Shown here: positions 24,315 to 41,979 of the stretch, one piece after another
How the letters are laid out: every line of letters begins with the position of its first letter
Position numbering within the stretch: the stretch's first letter is position 1
NCBI GenBank assembly: GCA_026392355.1
Contig: JAPLCF010000036.1
Coordinates: 129,054-193,053, forward strand
Direction of reading: 5' to 3'
Source: Actinomycetota bacterium
Lineage (GTDB): Bacteria > Actinomycetota > Thermoleophilia > Gaiellales > F1-60-MAGs149
DNA: 64,000 nucleotides
The notes under the pieces: model-generated
Told to the model about the DNA's origin: nothing
Seen by the model: only the letters and a program-made list of their open reading frames with translations
The model's database searches: none
Program-made: the position numbers and the translations under genes

Positions 24315-25093
24315 CCGAGCAGCCATCGCACCATCAGCACCTCGATGAACCACGGCGACAGTTCGGTCGCCGCTGGCTGGACCTGACGAGCGAGAACCAC
24401 ATCCTGGTCGCGCCGTTCATCTCGCTTGCGGCGTTCATCTGCATCGCCCTCGGCAACAAGTCAATCGTCGCGGCACTGATCGCGTTGCTCCTGCAGAGCG
24501 CGCTCTTCCAGATCGCCGTTGTGGCGCACATCCGCCAGCCGCAAGTGCGTCGCATCGCGTACATCACGGCACCGTTTCTCATCATTGCCATCGTGATAAT
24601 CGCGGGCGCACTCGCGCGTCTCGTCGGGGTGGACTCCGGCCGGTTCGTCCTGATGGCCTTCAGTGCTGGACTCACGCTCGGCGTGATCGTCCGCATCTTC
24701 GGTCGTGTCGCGAAGGCACCGATCATCAACGCGGGCGTGGTCGTCAACGCCGTCACGGTCTATCTGATGCTCGGGCTGTTCTTCGCCTACGTCTACATGT
24801 CGTTGAGCGCCGCAGCGGGCGAGGCGTTCTTCGCCCAAGGTTCCGACCAGCCGACCACGGTCTTCCTCTACTTCTCGTACGTCACGCTCGCGACCGTCGG
24901 CTACGGCGACTTCACCCCAGCGTTCAACGCAGGACGCTTCGCGGCCGTCGCCGAGGGCCTGATGGGTCAGCTGTACCTCGTCACCGTGCTCGCGCTGATC
25001 GTGAGCAACCTCGGTCGTCAACGCAACGGGTCGATGGTGCCGCTGGAGAAGTCCAGCGACACCACCCCCACCGATGATTCCCTAAAGGACTAG
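24311..25093 (+). CDS. Potassium channel family protein (two-TM pore domain with extra N-terminal TM helices)
   Basis: Selectivity filter TVGYGD. The start ATG overlaps the Rieske oxygenase stop (ATGA). Confidence 0.8.
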   Translation: MTEQPSHHQHLDEPRRQFGRRWLDLTSENHILVAPFISLAAFICIALGNKSIVAALIALLLQSALFQIAVVAHIRQPQVRRIAYITAPFLIIAIVIIAGALARLVGVDSGRFVLMAFSAGLTLGVIVRIFGRVAKAPIINAGVVVNAVTVYLMLGLFFAYVYMSLSAAAGEAFFAQGSDQPTTVFLYFSYVTLATVGYGDFTPAFNAGRFAAVAEGLMGQLYLVTVLALIVSNLGRQRNGSMVPLEKSSDTTPTDDSLKD

Positions 25094-26730
25094 GCGCCGA
25101 TCGCGCGCTTGCGGCGCTTGTGCCGCAGCTTCGCGGCCGCGGCCTTGCCCGGCGTCGGCTTGCCCGGCTTAGGAGCCTCGGGCGTGCCGTTGGTGTGCAC
25201 CGAGCGGTTCGACTGCTGATGCTTATGGTGCTCGCGGCTCGTGCTCTCGCCGCGGGCCTCGACCTTCTCGCCGTGACGGGGCTTGTCGCCATGACGCGGC
25301 TTGTCGCCGTGGTGCGGCTTGTCGCCGTGCGAGGGACGGTCACTACTGCGCGGACGATCATCACGCTGCGGCTTGTCACCGTAGGCCGGACGGTCGCCAC
25401 TGCGCGGACCATCATCACGCTTCGGCTTGTCGCCGTGGGACGGGCGGTCACCGCTACGCGGACGATCGTCACGACGCGGCTTGTCGCCGTGATGCGACTT
25501 GCGATCCTCGTGGCGCTTCTCGGCCTTCAGCTCGTGCTTGGCGATGGCATCGATGCGCTCGGCATCGACCGGCGGGCGCTTGGCGTCGACGCGGACGGGC
25601 TTGATCTCGCCGAGCAGGTCGAGGTCGACGGGCGTGATCTGCGCGTCGAGCTTGAGCTGGCTGAGGAGCTTGCGGACGGGATGCTCGTCCTGCTTGCCGA
25701 CGAAGCTGACGACCAGGCCGTCCTCGCCGGCACGGCCGGTGCGGCCCGAGCGATGGACGTAGTCGGCCTTGTCGGCCGGCGGGTCGAAGTGCACGACGCA
25801 CGAGACGTCATCGACGTGGATGCCGCGAGCGGCGACGTCGGTGGCGCAGAGGACCGGCATGCGGCCCTTGGTGAAGGCGTGCAGGGCACGGTCACGCTGC
25901 GACTGCGAGCGGCCGCCGTGCAGGTTGGCCGCGCCAACGCCAGCGGCGTTGAGCTTCTTGGCCAGACGATCGACGCCGTGCCGGGTACGGCAGAACGCGA
26001 TCACCGTACCGGTGCGCAGAACGAGGTCGACGAGCAGGTCGACGCGGTCGTCCGGCTTGACCTTCCAGAAGTAGTGCGTGACGTCGCCGACCGAACGCTC
26101 CTCGGCGACCGCCTCGTGGCGGACCGGGTTGTTCTGGTACTCACGGGCGACCTTCTCGACCTCGCCGTCGAGCGTGGCGGAGAAGAGCAGCGTCTGGCGG
26201 TTCGGCTGAACCTGGTCGAAGAGGCGGCGGACGACGGGCAGGAAGCCCATGTCGGCCATGCGGTCGGCCTCGTCGAGCACGACGATGTGGACGTCGGAAA
26301 GATCGACATCACGGCGCTGGATCAGGTCCTCGAGGCGGCCGGGGCACGCCACGAGGATCTCAACACCGCGGCGAAGCGCGCTCTGCTGCGCGCCATAGCC
26401 GGTGCCGCCGTAGACGGCAGCGCACTTGAAACCACGCGTTGCTGCGAGCGGCTCGACCTCGCGCATGATCTGCTCGGCGAGCTCGCGCGTCGGGGCGAGG
26501 ATCAGCGCAGTCGGGCGCTTCGGCTTGGCGGGCTTAACCTGCGCGGCGACGGCGAGGCCGAAGGCGATGGTCTTGCCCGAGCCCGTGGGGGCACGGCCGG
26601 TGACGTCGAGGCCCTGGAGGGCGTCGGGGATGGTGTATTCCTGGATCGGGAACGGGGCCTCGATGCCCTTGCGCGCCAGTACGGCCGCAAGGTCAGCAGG
26701 CACACCGAGATCGGTGAACGAGGTGGTCAT
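25090..26730 (-). CDS. DEAD-box ATP-dependent RNA helicase with a repetitive basic C-terminal tail
   Basis: Motifs APTGSGKT, VLDEADRM and SAT. Start is at Met86 of the track ORF, preceded by AGGAG. The C-terminal about 135 aa are low-complexity. Confidence 0.9.
   Translation of the reverse strand: MTTSFTDLGVPADLAAVLARKGIEAPFPIQEYTIPDALQGLDVTGRAPTGSGKTIAFGLAVAAQVKPAKPKRPTALILAPTRELAEQIMREVEPLAATRGFKCAAVYGGTGYGAQQSALRRGVEILVACPGRLEDLIQRRDVDLSDVHIVVLDEADRMADMGFLPVVRRLFDQVQPNRQTLLFSATLDGEVEKVAREYQNNPVRHEAVAEERSVGDVTHYFWKVKPDDRVDLLVDLVLRTGTVIAFCRTRHGVDRLAKKLNAAGVGAANLHGGRSQSQRDRALHAFTKGRMPVLCATDVAARGIHVDDVSCVVHFDPPADKADYVHRSGRTGRAGEDGLVVSFVGKQDEHPVRKLLSQLKLDAQITPVDLDLLGEIKPVRVDAKRPPVDAERIDAIAKHELKAEKRHEDRKSHHGDKPRRDDRPRSGDRPSHGDKPKRDDGPRSGDRPAYGDKPQRDDRPRSSDRPSHGDKPHHGDKPRHGDKPRHGEKVEARGESTSREHHKHQQSNRSVHTNGTPEAPKPGKPTPGKAAAAKLRHKRRKRAIGA
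25264..25497. repeat. In-frame tandem repeats inside the helicase tail (54-nt unit x3, then 15-18-nt HGDKP units)
   Basis: Encodes HGDKPRRDDRPRSGDRPS / HGDKPKRDDGPRSGDRPA / YGDKPQRDDRPRSSDRPS, then HGDKPH-HGDKPR-HGDKPR-HGEK. Confidence 0.8.
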
Positions 26731-26893
26731 GGAACTCCTATCGAGCAGTTCGCGCGCTCGAGTTGATTCCAGAGCGGGCGCATCCCCGGGGTACGTCGAC
26801 GGGTTCGCCGACAGCCAGGAACGTCCTCCTACGGTATCAGCGGTTTGTGGAACCGGCGGCATAGACCTGCCACACCCCGGTATCGTCCCTGCC

Positions 26894-28000
26894 ATGGATC
26901 GCCATCCCGATACCGCGCTTGTGCAGGGCGGGCGCCCGGAGGGTCCGGGCGCGATGCTCAACACGCCCATCGTGCTCAATAGCACCTACCGCGTCGGTGG
27001 CGACCTCAGCTACGGCCGCTCGGGCAACGAGACGTGGGAGGCCTTTGAGTCGGTGATGGGCGAGCTCGAAGGCGGTAGCGCCGTCGCGTTCGCCAGCGGG
27101 ATCGCCGCGGCGACGGCTGTGCTGGACCTCGTGCCGATCGGCGGCACGATCGTCGCGCCAATCTCGCTGTACATGGGCCTCTGGAGCCAGCTCAAGGAGC
27201 GCGCCAAGGACGGCCGCGCCAACGTGCATTTCGTCGATCAGACCGATGTCGATGCGTTGCTGACCGCCGCGCAGGGCGCCGACCTCGTCTGGATCGAGAC
27301 GCCGAGTAACCCGCTGATGCAGATCGCGGACATTGCCGCGATTGCCGAGGGCCTCGATGACTCCACGCTGCTCGCTGTCGACGGCACCTTCACGACGCCG
27401 CTGCTGCAGCAGCCGCTGGCGCTCGGTGCCGACCTGGTCGTCCACAGCGCGACGAAGCTGATCGGCGGCCATGCCGACCTGCTGATGGGCGTCGTGATCG
27501 GGAGCGACGAACTCGCGGAGAAGCTCCGCGACAAGCGCTATGCCCACGGCGCCACGCCGGGGTCGCTCGAAGCGTTCCTCGCACTCCGCGGCTTGCGCAC
27601 CTTGGCGGTCCGGCTCGAGCGTGCGCAGGCAAACGCCCAGGCGATCGCGGAGTTCCTCGCCGAGTCGAATCACGTGACGTACGTGCTCTACCCCAGCCTG
27701 AGCTGGCACAAGGGTCATGCCCTCGCCGCCAAGCAGATGCAGGGGTTCGGCACGATGCTCTCCTTCGAGCTCGCCGCCGGGCACGAGACAGCAGAGCGCC
27801 TCTGCAACGCCACGCAAGTCTTCGCCAACGCCACGAGCCTCGGTGGCGTCGAGTCGCTAATGGAGGTGCGCGGCAACCGCGAGTCGGAGCGCGCGATGGG
27901 TACGCCGCATGCGCTGATTCGCGTCTCCGCCGGCATCGAGCACTGCGACGACTTGATCGCGGACCTCACGCAGGCGCTTGCCATCGCCCACCAGGGCTAG
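26894..28000 (+). CDS. Cys/Met-metabolism PLP enzyme (cystathionine gamma-synthase/lyase family)
   Basis: PLP-lysine motif HSATKLIGGH in a 368-aa protein. Start is at Met157 of the track ORF. Confidence 0.8.
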   Translation: MDRHPDTALVQGGRPEGPGAMLNTPIVLNSTYRVGGDLSYGRSGNETWEAFESVMGELEGGSAVAFASGIAAATAVLDLVPIGGTIVAPISLYMGLWSQLKERAKDGRANVHFVDQTDVDALLTAAQGADLVWIETPSNPLMQIADIAAIAEGLDDSTLLAVDGTFTTPLLQQPLALGADLVVHSATKLIGGHADLLMGVVIGSDELAEKLRDKRYAHGATPGSLEAFLALRGLRTLAVRLERAQANAQAIAEFLAESNHVTYVLYPSLSWHKGHALAAKQMQGFGTMLSFELAAGHETAERLCNATQVFANATSLGGVESLMEVRGNRESERAMGTPHALIRVSAGIEHCDDLIADLTQALAIAHQG

Positions 28001-30061: not shown

Positions 30062-31354
30062 ATGTACGACTACGGATTCTTCTCGTACGACTCGAAGGCG
30101 GACATGCTGGAGCGCTCCCGCGCGTTCTGGAATCCCGACAAGACCGACTTCTGGCAGGACGCCGGCATCGACCTCGTGATCGATCGCCGCGAGGGCTACT
30201 ACCTCTGGGACATGGCTGGCCGCCGCCTGATCGACGTGCACCTCAACGGCGGCACGTACAACCTCGGCCACCGCAACCCCGAGCTAATCGCCACGCTCGA
30301 GCAGGCCATGCAGCACTTCGACATGGGCAACCATCACTTCCCGTCGCTCGCGCGCACCGCACTGGCCGAGGCGCTCGTCAAGACGTGCGCCCCGAACATG
30401 CGCCGCGTGATCTACGGCGCCGCGGGCGGCGAGGCGATCGACATCGCGATCAAGACGGCGCGTCACACCAAGCAGCGTCGCAAGATCGTCTCGCTGATCA
30501 AGGCGTACCACGGCCACACCGGCCTCGCCGTCGGCACGGGTGACGACCGCTTCTCGAAGCTCTTCCTCGCAGACCACCCCGAGGAGTTCATCAACGTCCC
30601 GTTCAACGATCTCAACGCGATGGAAGACGCGCTCAAGGGCCGCGACGTCGCCGGCGTGTTGATCGAGTCGATTCCCGCGACGTACGGCTTCCCACTCCCC
30701 GAGCCCGGCTACCTCCAGGGCGTCAAGCGCCTCTGCGAGCAGTACGACACGCTCTACATCGCCGACGAAGTGCAGACCGGCCTGATGCGCACGGGCGAGA
30801 TGTGGTGCATCTCGAAGTCGGGCGTCGAGCCGGACATCATGGTCATCGGCAAGGGCATCTCCGGCGGCATGTACCCGCTCTCGTGCGTCGTCGTCTCCGA
30901 GGAGTGCTCGGCCTGGCTCAAGGAGGACGGCTTCGGCCACATCACCACGGTCGGCGGTTCGGAACTCGGCTGCATCGTCGGGATGAAGGTCCTCGAGATC
31001 TGCGGCCGGCCCGAGGTGCGCTCGATGGTGCACTACATGGCCGAGCGCTTCCAGCAGGGCCTGCGCCAGATCCAGGAGATCTACCCCGACTGGTTCGTCG
31101 GCATCCGCCAGGACGGCGTCGTGATTGGCCTCGAGTTCAACCATCCCACCGGCGCGAAGATCGTGATGAAGCATCTTTACGCGCACGGCATCTGGGCGAT
31201 CTTCTCCACGCTCGATCCGCGCGTCCTGCAGTACAAGCCCGGCATCCTGCTGAGCCCCGAGCTGGTCGACGAGATCCTCGACCGCACGGAGATCGCCATT
31301 GGCAAGGCCTACGCCGAGTGGAAGTCCATGTCGCGCCAGGCGGTGACGGCATGA
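30062..31354 (+). CDS. Class-III aminotransferase-fold PLP enzyme (candidate amino-alcohol O-phosphate phospho-lyase of the BMC pathway)
   Basis: 430 aa with DEVQTGLMRTG and the VIGKGISGG PLP-lysine region. First gene of the BMC operon, ATGA-coupled to the aldehyde dehydrogenase. Confidence 0.8.
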   Translation: MYDYGFFSYDSKADMLERSRAFWNPDKTDFWQDAGIDLVIDRREGYYLWDMAGRRLIDVHLNGGTYNLGHRNPELIATLEQAMQHFDMGNHHFPSLARTALAEALVKTCAPNMRRVIYGAAGGEAIDIAIKTARHTKQRRKIVSLIKAYHGHTGLAVGTGDDRFSKLFLADHPEEFINVPFNDLNAMEDALKGRDVAGVLIESIPATYGFPLPEPGYLQGVKRLCEQYDTLYIADEVQTGLMRTGEMWCISKSGVEPDIMVIGKGISGGMYPLSCVVVSEECSAWLKEDGFGHITTVGGSELGCIVGMKVLEICGRPEVRSMVHYMAERFQQGLRQIQEIYPDWFVGIRQDGVVIGLEFNHPTGAKIVMKHLYAHGIWAIFSTLDPRVLQYKPGILLSPELVDEILDRTEIAIGKAYAEWKSMSRQAVTA

Positions 31355-32877
31355 GCATGATCGAGCTGGAGCGCCGCGATCCTCCCGGGGCCGCCCGCGC
31401 CGCGATGATGCTGCAGCGCGCCCACTGGGCCGCCGAGACCTTCGCGCGCTATGACCGCACCCGCGTCGTGCGCATCCTTGACGCCGTCGCCGAGGCCGCC
31501 GAGGCCCACGCCGAGCGCTATGCCGAGGAGGCCGTTGCCGAGACCGGCATGGGCGTCGTCGAGCACAAGGTCCTTAAGAACCGCATGCTCTCACGCGGCC
31601 TCTGGGACCACTATCGCGATCACGATTTCGTGAGCCCGCGCATCGACCACGACGCCAAGATCCTCGAGCTGCCCCGCCCCGCCGGCGTGATCTTCGCGCT
31701 CACGCCCGTCACGAACCCCGTCGCCACCGTGTACTTCAAGGTGATGCTCGCCCTGATGACGCGCAACGCGATCGTCGTGAGCCCGCATCCCGGTGCCAAG
31801 CACGTCTGCGCCGACGCCGTCCGCATGCTGTCCGACGCCGCCGTCCGCGCCGGCGCCCCTGACGGCTGCATCCAGATTGTCGAAGAGCCCTCGATCCCGC
31901 TGATCGAGGCGCTGATGACCGACCCGACGACCGACGTCGTCGTGGCGACCGGCGGTGGCGCCGTCGTGCGCGCCGCGTATCGCTCGGGCAATCCCGCCCT
32001 CGGCGTGGGTCCTGGCAACGTGCCCTCGTTCGTCGACGCCACGGCCGACATCGCTGCGGCCGCGCGGCACATCATCGACTCCAAGTCGTTCGACCACTCC
32101 ATCCTCTGCACCAACGAGTCGGTCGTGATCGTCGAAGAGGAGGTCGCCGACCAGCTCGAGCGCGAGCTGCGCAAGCACGGCGGCCACATCGTCGACGCCA
32201 GCGAGGTTGAGCAGGTGCGCGAGCACCTCTTCCCCAACGGCCACATGCGCCTCGACCTGATCGGCAAGAGCGCACTCGAGCTGGCCGAGGCCGCGCAGCT
32301 GAAGGTGCCCGCGAACACGCGCGTGCTGATCGCACCGTTCTCGCTCGTCGTCCCCGAGGAGCCGCTGGCGCACGAGAAGCTGTTCCCGCTGCTGGGCCTC
32401 GTCCGCGTGCCCAATACGCGCGCCGGCATCTCGGCCGCCCAGGCGATGCTGCGCATCACCGGCGCCGGCCACTCGGCCTCGATCCACTCGCGCAGCGCAC
32501 GGACGATCATGGCCTACGGCGCCGCGGTCAAGGTCCTGCGCGTGTCGGTCAACGTCGGCAACAGCCTCGGCTCGGCCGGCGCACTGACGAACCTCTCGCC
32601 CACGATGACGATCGGCACCGGCTTCTACGGCCGCTCGTCGGTTGGCGAGAACCTCGAGCCGCGCCACCTGATCAACCTGATGCGCGTCGCGTACAACGCC
32701 GACGCCTCCGTGCCCTTCGACGACTTCACCGGCCTTGAGCCGTGGGTCCTCGAGGCGGCCGCCACACCCATCGCCGCGCCCGTCGAGCACGCGCCGGCCG
32801 CACCCGAAACCGACCTGCTGCGCGAGGAGATCCGCAAGGTGATCCTCGAGGAGCTCAAGGAGCTGACCCGTCAGTGA
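31351..32877 (+). CDS. CoA-acylating aldehyde dehydrogenase (PduP/EutE-like) with C-terminal encapsulation-peptide-like helix
   Basis: Start is at Met184 of track ORF 30802..32877. The catalytic region has FDHSILCTNE. The tail is an Ala/Pro linker plus the amphipathic DLLREEIRKVILEELKELTRQ. Confidence 0.85.
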   Translation: MSMIELERRDPPGAARAAMMLQRAHWAAETFARYDRTRVVRILDAVAEAAEAHAERYAEEAVAETGMGVVEHKVLKNRMLSRGLWDHYRDHDFVSPRIDHDAKILELPRPAGVIFALTPVTNPVATVYFKVMLALMTRNAIVVSPHPGAKHVCADAVRMLSDAAVRAGAPDGCIQIVEEPSIPLIEALMTDPTTDVVVATGGGAVVRAAYRSGNPALGVGPGNVPSFVDATADIAAAARHIIDSKSFDHSILCTNESVVIVEEEVADQLERELRKHGGHIVDASEVEQVREHLFPNGHMRLDLIGKSALELAEAAQLKVPANTRVLIAPFSLVVPEEPLAHEKLFPLLGLVRVPNTRAGISAAQAMLRITGAGHSASIHSRSARTIMAYGAAVKVLRVSVNVGNSLGSAGALTNLSPTMTIGTGFYGRSSVGENLEPRHLINLMRVAYNADASVPFDDFTGLEPWVLEAAATPIAAPVEHAPAAPETDLLREEIRKVILEELKELTRQ

Positions 32878-33494
32878 GTAACGCAACCGCCGTCGAGCTC
32901 CGCTCCTGCATCTACCTCGATCAGCTGCAGCCGCAGACCATGTGTTACCTCGGCTCCTGGATCAAGGGCCGCCTGCCGCGCGCCGGCATGGCCGCCCAGA
33001 TCATCGAGGTCGCACCGGGTCTCGACATCGAGGCACTCACCGACGTCGCGCTCAAGCACGACCGCGTCGAGGCCGGCATCCTGTTCGTCGAGCGCACCTT
33101 CGGCTACCTCGAGATGCACTCGCTCTCGCCCGCCGCCGTCAAGTCGGCCACCAGCGCCGTGCTCGACGCGCTCGACCTGTCGGGTCGCGACTCGATCAAG
33201 CCGAAGATCCTGGCCAAGAAGGTCATCTCGCGCGTCGACGGCCAGCACGCCTTCCTGATCAACCGCAACAAGATCGGCTCGATGCTCCTGCCGGGTGAGT
33301 CGCTGTTCGTACTCGAATGCCAGCCCGCCTCGTACGCGATCCTCGCGACGAACGAGGCCGAGAAGGCCGCCGACATCAAGGTGATCGACTACCGCATGAT
33401 CGGCGCCACCGGCCGCGTCTACCTGTCCGGCGAGGAGGCCAACGTCCGCGCTGCGGGCGAGGCCGCCGTCGCAGCGCTGGAGGCAATCGCGTGA
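32874..33494 (+). CDS. BMC shell protein, tandem BMC-domain (BMC-T-like), paralog 1
   Basis: 206 aa with a GTGA-coupled start. Two BMC-like halves are visible (AAQIIEVAPGLDIEALTDVALK... and SLFVLECQPASYAILATNEAEKAADIKVI...GRVYLSGEEANVRAAGEAA). Confidence 0.7.
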   Translation: MSNATAVELRSCIYLDQLQPQTMCYLGSWIKGRLPRAGMAAQIIEVAPGLDIEALTDVALKHDRVEAGILFVERTFGYLEMHSLSPAAVKSATSAVLDALDLSGRDSIKPKILAKKVISRVDGQHAFLINRNKIGSMLLPGESLFVLECQPASYAILATNEAEKAADIKVIDYRMIGATGRVYLSGEEANVRAAGEAAVAALEAIA

Positions 33495-34060
33495 GCGAAG
33501 CCCCCGTCAACGAGAGCACCGAGATGCACGCGGCGCTGAAGACTGCGCTTGCCGAGCTCCTGCCCGACATGCTGCGCGAGCATCAGGCGGCTCCGGTCGC
33601 CCAGGTGCCTGCACCGCCCGTCGCGCAGACGCTGCGCCCGAGCACCTGGCACCCGTCGCAGCAGGCGCCCGATCCGGCGGGCAACGCCGCTCCCGCCCCC
33701 GCTGCCGCACCGGCCGCCGGGGGCGCCGTCGAGCAGGTGCGTCTCAAGGACGACCGCGACCTCGACACGTTCGTGCGCTCGCTGGCACGCCGCCTCGAGC
33801 ACCCGGCCGAGCGCGCCGCGATTGCCGCGGGCCACATCCGCTTCACCATGACGGGCCACGGCACACCTGCCGCCGCGCCTGCACCCGCCACGAGCGGTAC
33901 CGAGCGCATCGAGCGCGGTGCCGTCACCGAGCGCATCATCGAGCGCGCCGCCGAAAACGGTGGCGTCCTCGTGCTCGGCCCCAAGGCCGTGCTCACGCCG
34001 ATGGGCAAAGATCGCGCCCGCGCACTCGGCGTCCAGATCCAGAGGGAGGCAGCATGCTGA
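33491..34060 (+). CDS. BMC-associated hypothetical protein (N-terminal amphipathic helix, Pro/Ala linker, small C-terminal domain)
   Basis: 189 aa. GTGA-coupled upstream, and its end overlaps the BMC-P start by 7 nt. Contains MHAALKTALAELLPDMLRE, then a P/A-rich stretch, then ...GAVTERIIERAAENGGVLVLGPKAVLTPMGKDRARALGVQI. Confidence 0.6.
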   Translation: MSEAPVNESTEMHAALKTALAELLPDMLREHQAAPVAQVPAPPVAQTLRPSTWHPSQQAPDPAGNAAPAPAAAPAAGGAVEQVRLKDDRDLDTFVRSLARRLEHPAERAAIAAGHIRFTMTGHGTPAAAPAPATSGTERIERGAVTERIIERAAENGGVLVLGPKAVLTPMGKDRARALGVQIQREAAC

Positions 34061-34293
34061 AAGGCACCGTGACCGGATCCGTGTGGTCGACCAAGCGCGT
34101 CGACGATATGCCACACGGAGCGTTTCTTGAGGTAGAGCTCGAAGGCGGCGCCTCGATCGTCGCGTTCGACATTCTCGGCTCGGGGGTCGGCGAGCGGGTC
34201 CTCGTCGCCACCGGCTCTGTCGCCGCCGCGCGGTTTGCGCCGGCCCACCCGCCGATCGATGCACTGATCGTCGGCCTGATCGACCAGTCCTAG
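34054..34293 (+). CDS. BMC vertex pentamer protein (BMC-P; EutN/CcmL/PduN family)
   Basis: 79 aa: MLKGTVTGSVWSTKRV...VAFDILGSGVGERVLVATGSVAA...IDALIVGLID matches the EutN/CcmL pattern. Confidence 0.85.
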   Translation: MLKGTVTGSVWSTKRVDDMPHGAFLEVELEGGASIVAFDILGSGVGERVLVATGSVAAARFAPAHPPIDALIVGLIDQS

Positions 34294-34341: not shown

Positions 34342-34617
34342 ATGTCTGAAGCACTCGGAATGATCGAGACCAAGGGGTACGTCGCCGCACTCGCCGCCGC
34401 GGACGCCATGGTCAAGGCCGCCAACGTGACCATCGTCGGTCGCGAGGAGGTCGGTGACGGGCTCGTCGCCGTCGTCATCCAGGGCGACGTCGGTGCCGTC
34501 AAGGCTGCCACGGAGGCCGGCTCGGAGACCGCTGCAACGGTCGGCGAGCTCGTGTCCGCGCACGTCATCCCGCGCCCGCACGCCGAGCTCGGCAAGCACT
34601 TCACGGCCGGCAAGTAA
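34342..34617 (+). CDS. BMC shell hexamer protein (BMC-H; PduA/EutM/CcmK-like)
   Basis: 91 aa: [31 protein letters not shown]...[13 protein letters not shown] is the canonical BMC domain. AAGGAGGG RBS lies upstream. Confidence 0.95.
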
Positions 34618-34627
34618 GGAGCACCCG

Positions 34628-35272
34628 ATGGCCGGACCGGATATCGAACTGCGCGTCTACCTCCCCATCCCCGAGCTGCGTCGGCAGTTCGCGGCCTACA
34701 TGGGGACGCCGACGCGCGCTCGTGGCTACCCGCCGATGGAGGGCGAGCACGCTCTCATCGTCGAGGTCGCTCCCGGTCTGGCCATCGAGCGCGTTATCGA
34801 CCTCGCGCTCAAGGCCGTGCCTGAGGTCGAGCCCGGCATCCTCTTCGTGGAGCGCCAGTTCGGCGTCCTCGAGCTGCATGCCAAGGACGCGGAGACGGTT
34901 GAGCGCGCCGGTGCGGCGATTCTCGCCGGCATCAACGCCGAGCCGTCGCATCAGCTGAAGCCCCGCATCCTCTACTCGGATGTGATCGAGGACATCACCG
35001 ATCAGCACGCGGTGATCGTCAACCGCAACCGCCAGGCCTCGATGGTCCTGCCGGGCGAGTCGCTGCTCGTCTACGAGATGGCACCCGCACTGTTCGCAGC
35101 CATGGCAGCCAACGAGGCCGAGCGCGTCGCCCCGGACGTCACGGTCGTCGATATCGCGATGATCGGTGCGACCGGTCGCATCTACATGAGCGGCAAGACC
35201 GAGAGCGTCCTCAAGGCCCGCGACGAGATCACGCGCGTACTTGAGGCCGTCGTCGGCCGCGACCACGGATAG
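34628..35272 (+). CDS. BMC shell protein, tandem BMC-domain (BMC-T-like), paralog 2
   Basis: 214 aa, colinear with the 32874..33494 product (IELRVYLP...ALIVEVAPGLAIERVIDLALK...SLLVYEMAPALFAAMAANEAERVAPDV...GRIYMSGKTESVLKARDEI). AAGGAG RBS. Confidence 0.7.
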   Translation: MAGPDIELRVYLPIPELRRQFAAYMGTPTRARGYPPMEGEHALIVEVAPGLAIERVIDLALKAVPEVEPGILFVERQFGVLELHAKDAETVERAGAAILAGINAEPSHQLKPRILYSDVIEDITDQHAVIVNRNRQASMVLPGESLLVYEMAPALFAAMAANEAERVAPDVTVVDIAMIGATGRIYMSGKTESVLKARDEITRVLEAVVGRDHG

Positions 35273-37282: not shown

Positions 37283-38020
37283 GTGCGCGATCGGATCCTG
37301 AGCGAGATCGCCAGTGGTGCGCTCGCACCCGGTGAGCGCCTCGGTGGCGAGCGCGATCTCGCCGAGCACTACGGCGTCAGTCGCTCCACGCTGCGTGCCG
37401 CGCTGGGCGCACTCGAGACGATGGGCGCCGTGCGCCGACAGTCGGGCCGCACCGGTGGCACGTTCGTTGCCGCCCGCAAGGTCGAGCGCGACCTGCGCAG
37501 CATGGCCGGCCTGCCGTCGTATCTCCGACGCCAGGGCTTCTCGGCTGATGCCCGCGTGCTGTCGACCGCCACGATCGAAGCCGATGCCGAGACGGCCGCA
37601 GCGCTCGACGTTGCGGTCGGTGCGCTCGTGCTCGAGATCGTGCGCGTGCGTCTTGCCGACGGCGAGCCGATCTCCTACGAGCGCGCGCGCTTCCCCGCCG
37701 CGCGCTTCGCCGGCATGCTCGACCACGGCCTCGGCGGCTCGCTCTACGAGTTGCTGCAGAGCGAGTTCGACGTGAAGCCCGGCGAGGCAATGGAGCAGAT
37801 CGAGATCGTCGGCGCCGGCTCGGCCGAGGCGAAAGTGCTCGAGGTCAAGCGCTCCACGCCACTGGTCGCAATCATCCGCACCGCCTGGGACCGCGACGGC
37901 CGCCCGTTTGAGCACTCGCACGACCTGTTCCGCTCCGACCGCGTACGCATCGTCGTGCGCACGCCCGCCGGCGAATCGGCCGCCCGTGGCGTGGCGAGCA
38001 CGATCGAGGTCGTGGCATGA
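37283..38020 (+). CDS. GntR family regulator, HutC subfamily (UTRA effector domain)
   Basis: HTH ERDLAEHYGVSRSTLRAALGALETMGAVRRQSGRGTF-like segment followed by a UTRA-like domain. Start is GTG at Val185 of the track ORF. CTG 37217, overlapping the SDR stop, is an alternative. Confidence 0.75.
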   Translation: MRDRILSEIASGALAPGERLGGERDLAEHYGVSRSTLRAALGALETMGAVRRQSGRTGGTFVAARKVERDLRSMAGLPSYLRRQGFSADARVLSTATIEADAETAAALDVAVGALVLEIVRVRLADGEPISYERARFPAARFAGMLDHGLGGSLYELLQSEFDVKPGEAMEQIEIVGAGSAEAKVLEVKRSTPLVAIIRTAWDRDGRPFEHSHDLFRSDRVRIVVRTPAGESAARGVASTIEVVA

Positions 38021-38958
38021 CCGAGCACCGCATCTCCCGCGACCTGCCCACGCACCGTCGCTGGGACGTGGATGTCCCCCCGGTCGTGATGGCGCAACCT
38101 GGCGACGTGATCGTCGCCGAGACCGACGACTTCGCCGCGGGCCAGATCACCCGCGACTCGCCGGCCTCCGCGCTGCTCGAGGTCGACTTCGACCTGATCT
38201 ACCCGCTGGCCGGCCCGATCCACGTCGAAGGTGCCGAGCCGGGCGACGCACTGGCGATCGAGATCCTCGGCTTCGAACTGCCCGACTGGGGCTGGTCGTG
38301 CATCATCCCCGGCTTCGGCCTGCTGCCGCCCGGCGAGTTTCCCGACCCCGTCCTGCGCATCTTCGACCTGACGGACGGCGACACAACGCAGCTCTGTCCG
38401 GGCGTGCGCATTCCGATCGAGCCGTTCTGCGGCACGATGGGCGTCCCCGGCCCGGGCATGAGGGACGCGCCGATTCCGCCGCCCCATGCCGGTGGCGGCA
38501 ACGTCGATTGTCGACACCTGACCGCTGGCACCACGCTCTACCTTCCCGTCGGTGCCCCGGGCGGTCTGTTCTCGCTGGGTGATGCTCACGCTGCACAGGG
38601 CGATGGCGAGGTTGCGATCGCCGGTATCGAGTGCGCGATGACCACCCGCATTCGGGTCGATGTCGTCAAGGGCATGGATATCCCCGCGCCCCAGCTGCGC
38701 CGGCCAGCGGGCTCCCTGACACCGCGAGTCGACCACGCCGGCTGGTTCGCGACGACCGGTGTCGAGACCGATCTGATGGAGGGTGCCCGCAGTGCCGTGC
38801 GGGCGATGATCGACCATCTCGTGCGCGAGCGCGGGCTGTCGCGCGAGGACGCCTACATCCTTTGCGCGCTGGCCGGCGACCTCAAGATCACCGAGGTGGT
38901 CGATGCGCCGATGTGGATGGTCGGGTGCTTCATGCCCGACGCCGTCTTCACCGGATAG
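38017..38958 (+). CDS. Acetamidase/formamidase family (FmdA/AmdA) amidase
   Basis: 313 aa with LAGPIHVEGAEPGD...GGNVDCRHL...LFSLGDAHAAQGDGE, as in the FmdA_AmdA family. The ATG overlaps the regulator stop (ATGA). Confidence 0.8.
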   Translation: MTEHRISRDLPTHRRWDVDVPPVVMAQPGDVIVAETDDFAAGQITRDSPASALLEVDFDLIYPLAGPIHVEGAEPGDALAIEILGFELPDWGWSCIIPGFGLLPPGEFPDPVLRIFDLTDGDTTQLCPGVRIPIEPFCGTMGVPGPGMRDAPIPPPHAGGGNVDCRHLTAGTTLYLPVGAPGGLFSLGDAHAAQGDGEVAIAGIECAMTTRIRVDVVKGMDIPAPQLRRPAGSLTPRVDHAGWFATTGVETDLMEGARSAVRAMIDHLVRERGLSREDAYILCALAGDLKITEVVDAPMWMVGCFMPDAVFTG

Positions 38959-40644: not shown

Positions 40645-41979
40645 CTACTGCGTCTTGGCGATGGCGGCGGCCTGCCGCGCGGTCCACACCGACGTCTCCG
40701 CGTACCACGTGCCGAGGTAATCGCCTGCGAGATGGATACGCCCAAGCGGCTCCATCAGCGCGGGCTGGATGCGGCTGCGCCCGACGAACGGGTACGGGAT
40801 GCCCGGGTCGACGCGGTGCAGCAGACGCTCGACGACATGGCCCTTCAGCTCGGGCAGCGTGTCCTCGAGGTCGCGCTGGAAGAGATCGAGAATCGCCTCA
40901 TCCGAGTCGCCGACAATGCGCCGTGCGAGGTTGGCCGTGGCGTACGTCATGAAGCTCGATCCCTTCACGCGCTTGGGCATCAGGACGTTACCCATGTTGA
41001 AGAGCATCGACGTCGCGCGGTCCGGTGTCGCGATCGCGTAGATGTCGTCCCAGCGCCGGGGGCCGTCCTCATCCGTGAGGAACGCGGCGGAGATCATCGG
41101 GCCGTAGGTAATCGCGCGCAGGGCGGCATCCGTCGCGGCGGGCAGACCCTCGACGATCTCTGCGGTCACGTGCGATGGCGCGGTGACGATCGCAGCCTTG
41201 GCGCGCAGGGTTCGGCGCGTGCCGTTGTCGTCGCACTCGACCGTCACGCCGTCGGCGTCTTGTGCCACGCACGTCACGTTGACACCAAACCGGATGCGGT
41301 CGCCGTGCGGGGCAGCCAGGCCATCGATCAGCGTCTGCGGCCCACCGACAATGTTGCGGCCGAGGCCGTCCTCCTGATTCCACGCCAGGTGGAAGTAGCC
41401 GACGCCATAGCCGGCCGCGATCTGCTCGGGCTCGCCCGTGCCACGCGTGAGCGTGCAGCGAAAGAACGCGTCGACCTCGGGCTGTAGTACCCCGAGCTTC
41501 TGCGTGAACGACTGGTCGTCCATGAAGTCGAGCATGCGCTGCTGCAGCGCGGCGGGCTCCTCGCCCGGGCGCGGCTTCGCCATCTCGCCATACTCGGCGA
41601 CGAGCTTCCGCAGCTTCAGGCCGGTGCGCACGAACGACGCGCGGCCACCCAGCGAGATCGGCAGCTTGAACGGATACAGCTCGAGCGGCCCCTCGGCCAC
41701 CAGCTTGCCCTTGTACGAGACGCCCGTCAGCACGCCAGGGATGTCGCGCGGCTCGGCACCGACCTCGTGCATCAGCGTGCCCGCCGCAGAGTTGTCGCCG
41801 GCGTAGACGTGCGCGCCGAGATTGAGCCACAGATCGCCACGCGCCTCGGAGCGAATGCGGCCCCCAACGCGGTTGGCACGCTCGAGCACCACGACGTCGC
41901 GATCGCGCAGATCCCACGCGGCGCTGAGCCCGGCGATGCCGGCGCCGATCACGATGACATCGTGCTGCTCCGGCTCCAT
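40645..41979 (-). CDS. FAD-dependent amine oxidase-like oxidoreductase (paralog A)
   Basis: [18 protein letters not shown]...LERANRVGGR N-terminus, 444 aa. Colinear with the 42926..44284 product. Confidence 0.75.
   Translation of the reverse strand: MEPEQHDVIVIGAGIAGLSAAWDLRDRDVVVLERANRVGGRIRSEARGDLWLNLGAHVYAGDNSAAGTLMHEVGAEPRDIPGVLTGVSYKGKLVAEGPLELYPFKLPISLGGRASFVRTGLKLRKLVAEYGEMAKPRPGEEPAALQQRMLDFMDDQSFTQKLGVLQPEVDAFFRCTLTRGTGEPEQIAAGYGVGYFHLAWNQEDGLGRNIVGGPQTLIDGLAAPHGDRIRFGVNVTCVAQDADGVTVECDDNGTRRTLRAKAAIVTAPSHVTAEIVEGLPAATDAALRAITYGPMISAAFLTDEDGPRRWDDIYAIATPDRATSMLFNMGNVLMPKRVKGSSFMTYATANLARRIVGDSDEAILDLFQRDLEDTLPELKGHVVERLLHRVDPGIPYPFVGRSRIQPALMEPLGRIHLAGDYLGTWYAETSVWTARQAAAIAKTQ

Follow-up and report, generated by a model that had tools for sequence, protein, structure and literature searches.

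PduM is a compartment protein of very low abundance (PMC9132943) whose residues 1 to 23 in Salmonella form a signal sequence, enough on its own to target proteins to the enzyme core and required for wild-type levels of encapsulation (PMC12108088, PMC9132943). Deletion of pduM leaves core and shell partly separated and the compartments enlarged or elongated (PMC12108088, PMC9132943), and a 2025 study described PduM as having no known homology outside Pdu compartments (PMC12108088). EutQ, in turn, depends on residues 9 to 41 (H1/H2) to associate with the shell; it binds EutM and EutL and joins shell to cargo through residues 1 to 99 (PMC12487888). Experiments have established both PduM and the EutQ N-terminus as linkers between shell and core (PMC12108088, PMC9132943, PMC12487888). 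Here, we compared these systems with a bacterial microcompartment (BMC) locus of the aminoacetone (RMM/AAUM) type in a 64,000-nucleotide stretch of the genome of an Actinomycetota bacterium (contig JAPLCF010000036.1; the whole stretch is referred to below as the window). Between two of its shell protein genes, the locus encodes an uncharacterized protein of 189 amino acids, labeled X (open reading frame [ORF] 33491 to 34060, plus strand). Comparison leans, by a little, toward X being the RMM/AAUM counterpart of PduM, a PduM-type tether of the enzyme core to the shell. X is a real and widespread RMM/AAUM component that had not been assigned before, and it would work most like PduM. RMM/AAUM compartments are common among soil and freshwater Actinobacteria and are, to our knowledge, the only microcompartments known in mycobacteria. 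A literature search found no paper connecting PduM to RMM.

The C-terminal motif of X pointed to EutQ and PduM. Profile comparisons show that the C-terminal module of X shares homology with the C-terminal ends of PduM and TIGR02536 proteins and with the H1/H2 region at the N-terminus of EutQ. The comparison sequences were E. coli EutQ, which matches PF06249 (E = 5e-70), 108 PduM proteins, and TIGR02536, adenosyltransferase, and EutQ-like sequences from annotated records of Listeria, C. difficile, Cetobacterium, and Enterococcus. The Salmonella PduM sequence scored as a full-length member of PF15953 (E = 6e-61). We pooled 26 non-X modules into one alignment (PduM C-termini, TIGR02536-type C-termini, EutQ-type N-termini, and adenosyltransferase N-termini), to which the X family aligned in hhalign at 95.4% (P = 1.8e-8) and, with PduM left out, at 89.9%. 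The observed score of 46.3 compares with a top score of 17 among 200 column-shuffled controls. Taken group by group, the full-length PduM alignment matched the X family at 69.6% (P = 4.2e-5), with the extreme C-termini pairing up, and the PduM C-terminus alone matched at 89% (P = 2.3e-6). Three EutQ-type N-termini matched at 90.9% (P = 1.2e-6), and the TIGR02536-type C-termini from EUT2 loci matched with P = 3.4e-4. Residues 145 to 185 of X align with residues 5 to 47 of EutQ, a single-sequence comparison with P = 7e-4. The AlphaFold2 model of PduM (predicted local distance difference test score [pLDDT], 91) ends in a helix-and-strand order identical to that of X.

Searches in the opposite direction gave the same picture. 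A hidden Markov model (HMM) built without any X sequence found X as the single match among 823 six-frame segments of the window (E = 0.0062; next best, 2.3). Run against the 10,351 segments of 80 RMM loci, it recovered 74 X orthologs (best E = 6.8e-7) and no non-X segment at E <= 1. Among 46 members of the X family, the TIGR02536 model gave sub-threshold matches to 32 (best E = 0.0014); the scored examples reached 12 to 15 bits, short of the cutoff of 152.6 bits, and covered the C-terminal module only. The PduM models NF011957 and TIGR04493 gave sub-threshold matches to three (best E = 0.006) and two members (best E = 0.0083), respectively, and PF15953 matched one (E = 0.14). By the families' own criteria, X is not a member of PduM, TIGR02536, or EutQ. 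The X sequence of the window itself matched none of the PduM models PF15953, NF011957, and TIGR04493, did not match the cupin/EutQ model PF06249, and found nothing above threshold in Pfam and NCBIfam. The X family profile returned a chance tail-fiber match (E = 1.2) and nothing else from PDB sequences. A Foldseek search with the AlphaFold2 model of X, a check proposed in the original prediction, likewise produced no PDB match under E = 0.3, returning generic strand-helix fragments (HcgD, eIF5B).

The original prediction, made from the sequence alone, had likened the C-terminal pattern of X to the N-terminal domain of some BMC-associated adenosyltransferases. The motif is indeed there in the N-termini of these enzymes in Listeria, C. 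difficile, and Cetobacterium, but direct hhalign comparison of X with adenosyltransferase N-termini was not significant (P = 0.13 and 0.15). The likeness holds only transitively, because these N-termini are related to the TIGR02536 C-terminal module (P = 4.9e-11) and to the EutQ-type N-terminus (P = 4.6e-8). In both adenosyltransferases and EutQ, the module is an appendage, separate from the catalytic domain. The same module of ∼45 residues stands at the N-terminus of EUT2 adenosyltransferases, of an EutQ-like cupin protein from a GRM locus, and of a hypothetical protein from a GRM locus (Table 1), and Pfam leaves the module-bearing N-terminal stretch unannotated in all three such proteins scanned.

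Several features beyond the module bring X close to PduM. The two are similar in length (163 amino acids for PduM; 162 to 189 for X), each begins with an amphipathic helix and lacks an enzyme domain, and in each the helix-and-strand module forms the extreme C-terminus. Both genes also lie directly upstream of a pentamer gene, which is pduN in the case of pduM. What lies between the termini differs: in PduM, a compact alpha/beta body (residues 24 to 120) follows right after the helix, whereas X has a disordered Pro/Ala-rich tether of ∼46 residues and an unrelated middle domain of 43 residues. The function of PduM is known from genetics and imaging, whereas the role of X is proposed by comparison. 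The TIGR02536 proteins (“eut_hyp”) found in EUT2 loci of Firmicutes and Fusobacteria share with X the N-terminal amphipathic helix, the C-terminal module (...ITEQDVEKL..FILPKGSFLTPLAKDYLQENRISI), and the position of the gene, which in Listeria, C. difficile, and Cetobacterium lies immediately upstream of EutN. They differ in a larger and unrelated central region, and the family is itself uncharacterized. PduM, TIGR02536, and a Cetobacterium protein encoded at the same position all end with the module and are all encoded directly upstream of a pentamer gene; their N-terminal helices (e.g., ETLQRIVEEIVSRL and LDALIKAVTEEVMRRL) are comparable to those of mycobacterial X (DALRQLVREVVREAV) and of the X of the window (ALKTALAELLPDMLRE).

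EutQ of EUT1 loci and the EutQ-like cupin proteins of GRM loci carry the module homologous to the X C-terminus at the opposite end. In EutQ, cargo-binding helices and a cupin acetate-kinase domain come after the N-terminal module; X lacks the cupin and has the reverse order, with the module C-terminal and the cargo-type helix N-terminal. EUT2-type EutQ proteins lack the N-terminal module, and their loci contain a TIGR02536 gene instead. Like the N-terminal encapsulation peptides of PduP, PduD, and EutC, X combines an amphipathic helix of about 18 residues with a flexible linker; unlike in those cargo proteins, the helix is on a nonenzymatic protein. CcmN, CsoS2, and PduB (residues 1 to 37), which link shell and cargo in carboxysomes and Pdu compartments, are comparable to X in the proposed bridging of shell and core via a flexible region, but no sequence relationship to X was detected and their domain content differs. 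Based on these comparisons, we think it possible, and put it forward tentatively, that PduM, TIGR02536, the EutQ N-terminus, and X are versions of one ancient core-to-shell linker of metabolosomes.

X is a genuine conserved gene, and both the number of its homologs and its fixed position are far above chance expectation. The X of the window has 212 relatives at E <= 0.001 in a clustered protein collection, a profile search with the X family returned 820 clusters at 50% identity, and a mycobacterial X ortholog used as the query returned 2,793 clusters at 90% identity. Among these 2,793 clusters, each named relative was called “hypothetical” and none carried a Pfam domain. Purifying selection is clear among the homologs, with conserved domains and variable linkers, and the in-frame third-position GC content (GC3) of X is 0.86, similar to that of the adjoining genes. 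The ORF lies, as the original prediction stated, between BMC-T and BMC-P genes. It overlaps both: its GTG start (33491 to 33493) shares bases with the TGA that ends the upstream BMC-T gene (33492 to 33494) as GTGA, and its TGA stop (34058 to 34060) overlaps the BMC-P ATG at 34054 as ATGCTGA. With the aminotransferase/aldehyde dehydrogenase (AldDH) junction (ATGA) and the AldDH/BMC-T junction (GTGA), these overlaps join the aminotransferase, AldDH, BMC-T, X, and BMC-P genes (31351 to 34060) into what would therefore be a chain of five translationally coupled genes. The junctions suggest that translation of the cargo and shell genes is tightly coupled.

The surrounding genes place the locus in the RMM1/AAUM type, whose composition is described in PMC8217296 (Supplementary Data 2). 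Based on Pfam and PDB matches, the window contains the two BMC-Tdp, single BMC-H, and single BMC-P genes of that type along with its enzymes, regulator, and permease. The gene order is class III aminotransferase, AldDH (assigned through PF00171), BMC-T, X, BMC-P, BMC-H, second BMC-T, APH-type kinase, and short-chain dehydrogenase (SDR); farther downstream come genes for a GntR/UTRA regulator, an acetamidase-like protein, and an amino acid permease (Pfam). Since its neighbors match MSM0275, MSM0273, and MSM0271, X is the positional counterpart of M. smegmatis gene 0274. This gene is skipped in the structural inventory of M. smegmatis shell proteins, and the HMM name table of the BMC catalog lists the RMM counterparts msmeg_0269, 0271 to 0273, 0275 to 0277, and 0279 without 0274. 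The same table has no RMM or EUT counterpart for PduM.

A scan of one genome per species yielded 215 confirmed loci, and synteny was assessed in the best 80 of these. X lay between BMC-T and BMC-P in all 80, and the order AT3-AldDH-T1-X-P-H-T2-APH-SDR held in all retrieved loci that span those genes, with X directly upstream of BMC-P wherever the locus reaches the pentamer gene. The check on conservation and position across RMM loci that the original prediction suggested thus found homologs in other such loci and always in the same place. No X homolog was seen outside RMM loci among the 80 retrieved, and a tblastn search of plasmids with X gave no match. The loci come from Gaiellales, Thermoleophilia, Solirubrobacterales, Nocardioidaceae, Lapillicoccus, Pseudonocardia, and Rhodococcus, as well as from numerous species of Mycobacterium and Mycolicibacterium.

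In 77 of the 78 complete orthologs, the X stop codon overlaps or abuts the BMC-P start (−7, −4, −1, or 0 nt). A C-terminal Cys is present in 44 of the 78, all of which have the 7-nt GCATGCTGA-type (ATGCTGA) overlap, and the orthologs of Mycobacterium and Rhodococcus end in T, K, or R without a terminal Cys. We attribute the conservation of this residue to the overlap, because its TGC codon sits inside the ATG-CTG start of BMC-P. A role of the Cys as a metal or redox ligand was considered and rejected, as the residue is absent wherever the overlap type differs.

Based on a family alignment (A1), an alignment of 46 sequences, and an AlphaFold2 model, we divided X into five parts: a helix, a Pro/Ala-rich tether, a middle domain, a second linker, and the C-terminal module (Table 1). 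The original prediction had described three of these and quoted the N- and C-terminal peptides correctly. Its helix is present, but the peptide quoted for it begins at residue 12, not at residue 1; its Pro/Ala-rich linker spans about 46 residues rather than 60; and it overlooked the middle domain and the second linker that precede the C-terminal module in both alignment and model. The helix-plus-linker layout that it compared to cargo and scaffold proteins is real, but X is not cargo and has no enzyme domain. Its suggestion that X could be a scaffold or could help assemble this type of BMC is supported by the homology of the C-terminal module and by the synteny of the 80 RMM1 loci.

In the N-terminal helix, L20, L24, and P25 are invariant (A1). 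Its hydrophobic moment is 0.48, compared with 0.47 for the PduP signal sequence, and a helix of the same type is found at the N-terminus of all X orthologs, of PduM, and of TIGR02536 proteins; in its predicted properties, the helix resembles an encapsulation peptide. The tether differs in length among X orthologs and contains a VPAPPxxxxxRPxxW motif in which V39, P40, A41, P42, P43, R49, and P50 are invariant and W53 is nearly so (A1). The motif, which may be a short docking motif, occurs in 42 of the 78 orthologs, all within the Thermoleophilia/Gaiellales/Solirubrobacterales clade and none in Mycobacterium or Rhodococcus. The middle domain (strands 79 to 84 and 116 to 121 around helices 88 to 102 and 105 to 112 in the model) carries the family's most invariant residues (D88, L91, F94, R96, L98, G114, and F118 in the 46 sequences). 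Searches of Pfam, NCBIfam, and PDB sequences found no significant relative of this domain, which is specific to the X family. Sub-threshold matches of PF09119 (SicP-binding) to the domain in 10 of the 46 members (best E = 0.0016) were taken as spurious, because PF09119 describes a nonglobular effector segment from an unrelated context. The C-terminal module has the consensus GAVTERxxxxAAxxGxxLVLxPxAVLTPxxxDxARxLGVxI and alternates strands (137 to 145, 159 to 168, and 182 to 185) with helices (147 to 156 and 170 to 179) in the model; by analogy with its homologs, it is a predicted shell-docking module. One metagenomic representative protein (P0147) has the N-terminal ∼80 residues of a BMC-H protein joined in frame to the middle and C-terminal parts of X, which could be a true gene fusion or an assembly chimera.

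A second terminal helix is found in the locus at the end of AldDH, in a C-terminal region of linker plus helix (32740 to 32874). Judging from its sequence, this helix is likely an encapsulation peptide, and it is a possible partner of X in the enzyme core. The aminotransferase, kinase, and SDR show no obvious terminal extension of this kind.

Together, these features would fit a structural protein of low copy number, one that ties the enzyme core to the shell's inner face and contributes to shell closure at a defined size. The N-terminal helix would act like the PduM signal sequence, bringing X into the cargo condensate alongside AldDH with its own C-terminal helix; the tether would span the gap between core and shell; and the C-terminal module would attach to shell tiles in the way that its homologous region in EutQ binds EutM and EutL. 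The overlap of the X and BMC-P genes may keep expression of X low and linked to that of BMC-P. Several points weigh against a PduM-like tether. The homology of X to known linkers covers only about 43 residues, and the whole-length alignment with PduM has no statistical support outside the last ∼43 residues; X also scores too low to pass the PduM and TIGR02536 model thresholds and lacks the central domain of PduM. The pooled module alignment was built by eye from protein termini and thus carries some selection bias. A literature search yielded no paper that mentions MSMEG_0274. Finally, in Salmonella, PduM was found with the cargo and not with the shell when PduB residues 1 to 37 were absent (PMC9132943), so EutQ is the sole precedent for shell docking by the X module.

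The position of the gene would also suit a pentamer-specific assembly factor, one that brings BMC-P to the vertices, chaperones it there, or sets the timing of capping and is not a cargo tether. A PduM-type gene stands directly before the pentamer gene in PDU1, EUT2, and RMM1 loci, the X and BMC-P genes usually overlap in RMM loci, and the enlarged or elongated compartments formed without pduM suggest a role in size or closure. We consider such a factor unlikely, though, since PduM localizes with the enzyme core and core and shell come apart when it is lost, the homologous region of EutQ binds EutM and EutL, neither of which is a pentamer, and the overlap of the genes may merely set the level of expression. 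It is improbable that X is instead the main scaffold of the RMM compartment, nucleating its enzyme core, as CsoS2 or CcmM does, via multivalent condensation of AldDH and aminotransferase. Such a scaffold might be expected from the long disordered Pro/Ala-rich region with its VPAPPxxxxxRPxxW motif invariant in one clade, from the amphipathic terminal helices on both X and AldDH, and from the lack of any other candidate scaffold in RMM loci. Yet the motif is absent from mycobacterial and Rhodococcus orthologs, the length of the linker varies widely, the relative PduM is very low in abundance, and, because each motif is single-copy, X is not multivalent like CsoS2.

An encapsulated catalytic or cofactor-handling protein, serving for example a CoA or NAD+ recycling step of the kind apparently missing from RMM loci, is a very unlikely identity for X. 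The folded part of X comprises only about 95 residues in two tiny subdomains and matches no enzyme family; its invariant residues are mostly hydrophobic, Gly, Arg, Asp, or Glu, neither Cys nor His is invariant in the folded domains, and no cofactor-binding motif is recognizable. RMM loci do lack phosphotransacylase and alcohol dehydrogenase (PMC4207490), and the same module stands N-terminal in enzymes (adenosyltransferases and EutQ), but in the enzymes that bear it the module is a noncatalytic appendage. Long spurious ORFs are present on both strands of the high-GC DNA here, but there is virtually no chance that X is merely such an open frame between two shell genes, a reading refuted by thousands of homologs under purifying selection and opposed by in-frame coding-type GC3, a ribosome-binding site, the same position in 80 of 80 loci, and domains that AlphaFold2 folds confidently.

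Table 1. Coordinates of X, its parts, and neighboring features in the window, with module-bearing N-termini from other loci
Feature	Position	Strand	Basis
X gene, 189 codons plus stop	33491..34060	+	Translation, GC3, homologs, fixed position, PDB matches of neighbors
GGAGG ribosome-binding site of X, within the end of BMC-T, 7 nt before GTG	33479..33483	+	Sequence
X N-terminal amphipathic helix, residues 7-32 (core 12-31, MHAALKTALAELLPDMLRE)	33509..33586	+	AlphaFold2
X Pro/Ala-rich tether, residues 33-78, 57% Pro+Ala	33587..33724	+	Composition; pLDDT < 50 at residues 47-76
X tether motif VPAPPxxxxxRPxxW, residues 39-53	33605..33649	+	Alignment A1
X middle domain, strand-helix-helix-strand, residues 79-121	33725..33853	+	AlphaFold2, pLDDT about 80-92
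X second short Pro/Ala-rich linker, residues 122-136	33854..33898	+	pLDDT < 50 at residues 125-134; composition
X C-terminal strand-helix-strand-helix-strand module, ∼45 residues (137-186); predicted shell-docking module	33899..34048	+	AlphaFold2, pLDDT > 90; hhalign; HMM
X/BMC-P overlap zone, GGGAGG (34044-34049) and ATG (34054) inside the final X codons (..REAAC-stop)	34044..34060	+	Sequence
AldDH C-terminal amphipathic helix (DLLREEIRKVILEELKELTRQ) after Pro/Ala linker	32812..32874	+	Translation, hydrophobic moment 0.63
BMC-T (double-stacking type), MSM0275 ortholog; GTG start overlaps AldDH stop	32874..33494	+	PDB 5L39, E = 4.6e-85
BMC-P pentamer, MSM0273 ortholog	34054..34293	+	PF03319; PDB 5L37, E = 6.7e-28
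BMC-H hexamer	34342..34617	+	PF00936, E = 2e-27
Second BMC-T, MSM0271 ortholog	34628..35272	+	PDB 5SUH, E = 4.9e-93
Module-bearing N-termini in other loci	L083 5059-5814; L085 2876-3637; L086 3395-4153; L084 6896-7462, 9001-9606		

The two BMC-T proteins of the window are 45% identical to each other, and the second has no Pfam BMC match at E <= 0.01. On either side of the RMM locus lies a flavin amine oxidase gene (PF01593; 28700 to 30022, plus strand, and 40645 to 41979, minus strand), and a gene of the acetamidase/formamidase family lies nearby (38017 to 38958). The amine oxidases and the acetamidase/formamidase gene may be clade-specific feeder enzymes of an amino-ketone/amino-alcohol pathway. 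Elsewhere in the window, the ORF listing contains a DEAD-box-helicase-like ORF (25090 to 26985, minus strand) with a long C-terminal tail of degenerate repeats (HGDKPRRDDRPRSGDRPS...).

By linking the X family to PduM, to TIGR02536, and to the shell-binding part of EutQ, we obtain a concrete candidate for the core-shell tether of RMM compartments. If the four are indeed versions of one linker, they would share a docking module of ∼45 residues on a protein encoded immediately upstream of the pentamer gene, and aldehyde-processing microcompartments of very different chemistry would share a common assembly rule. The module could then serve as a portable shell-targeting tag. The reuse of one small module across compartment types that these comparisons suggest may be of practical use in engineering cargo loading.

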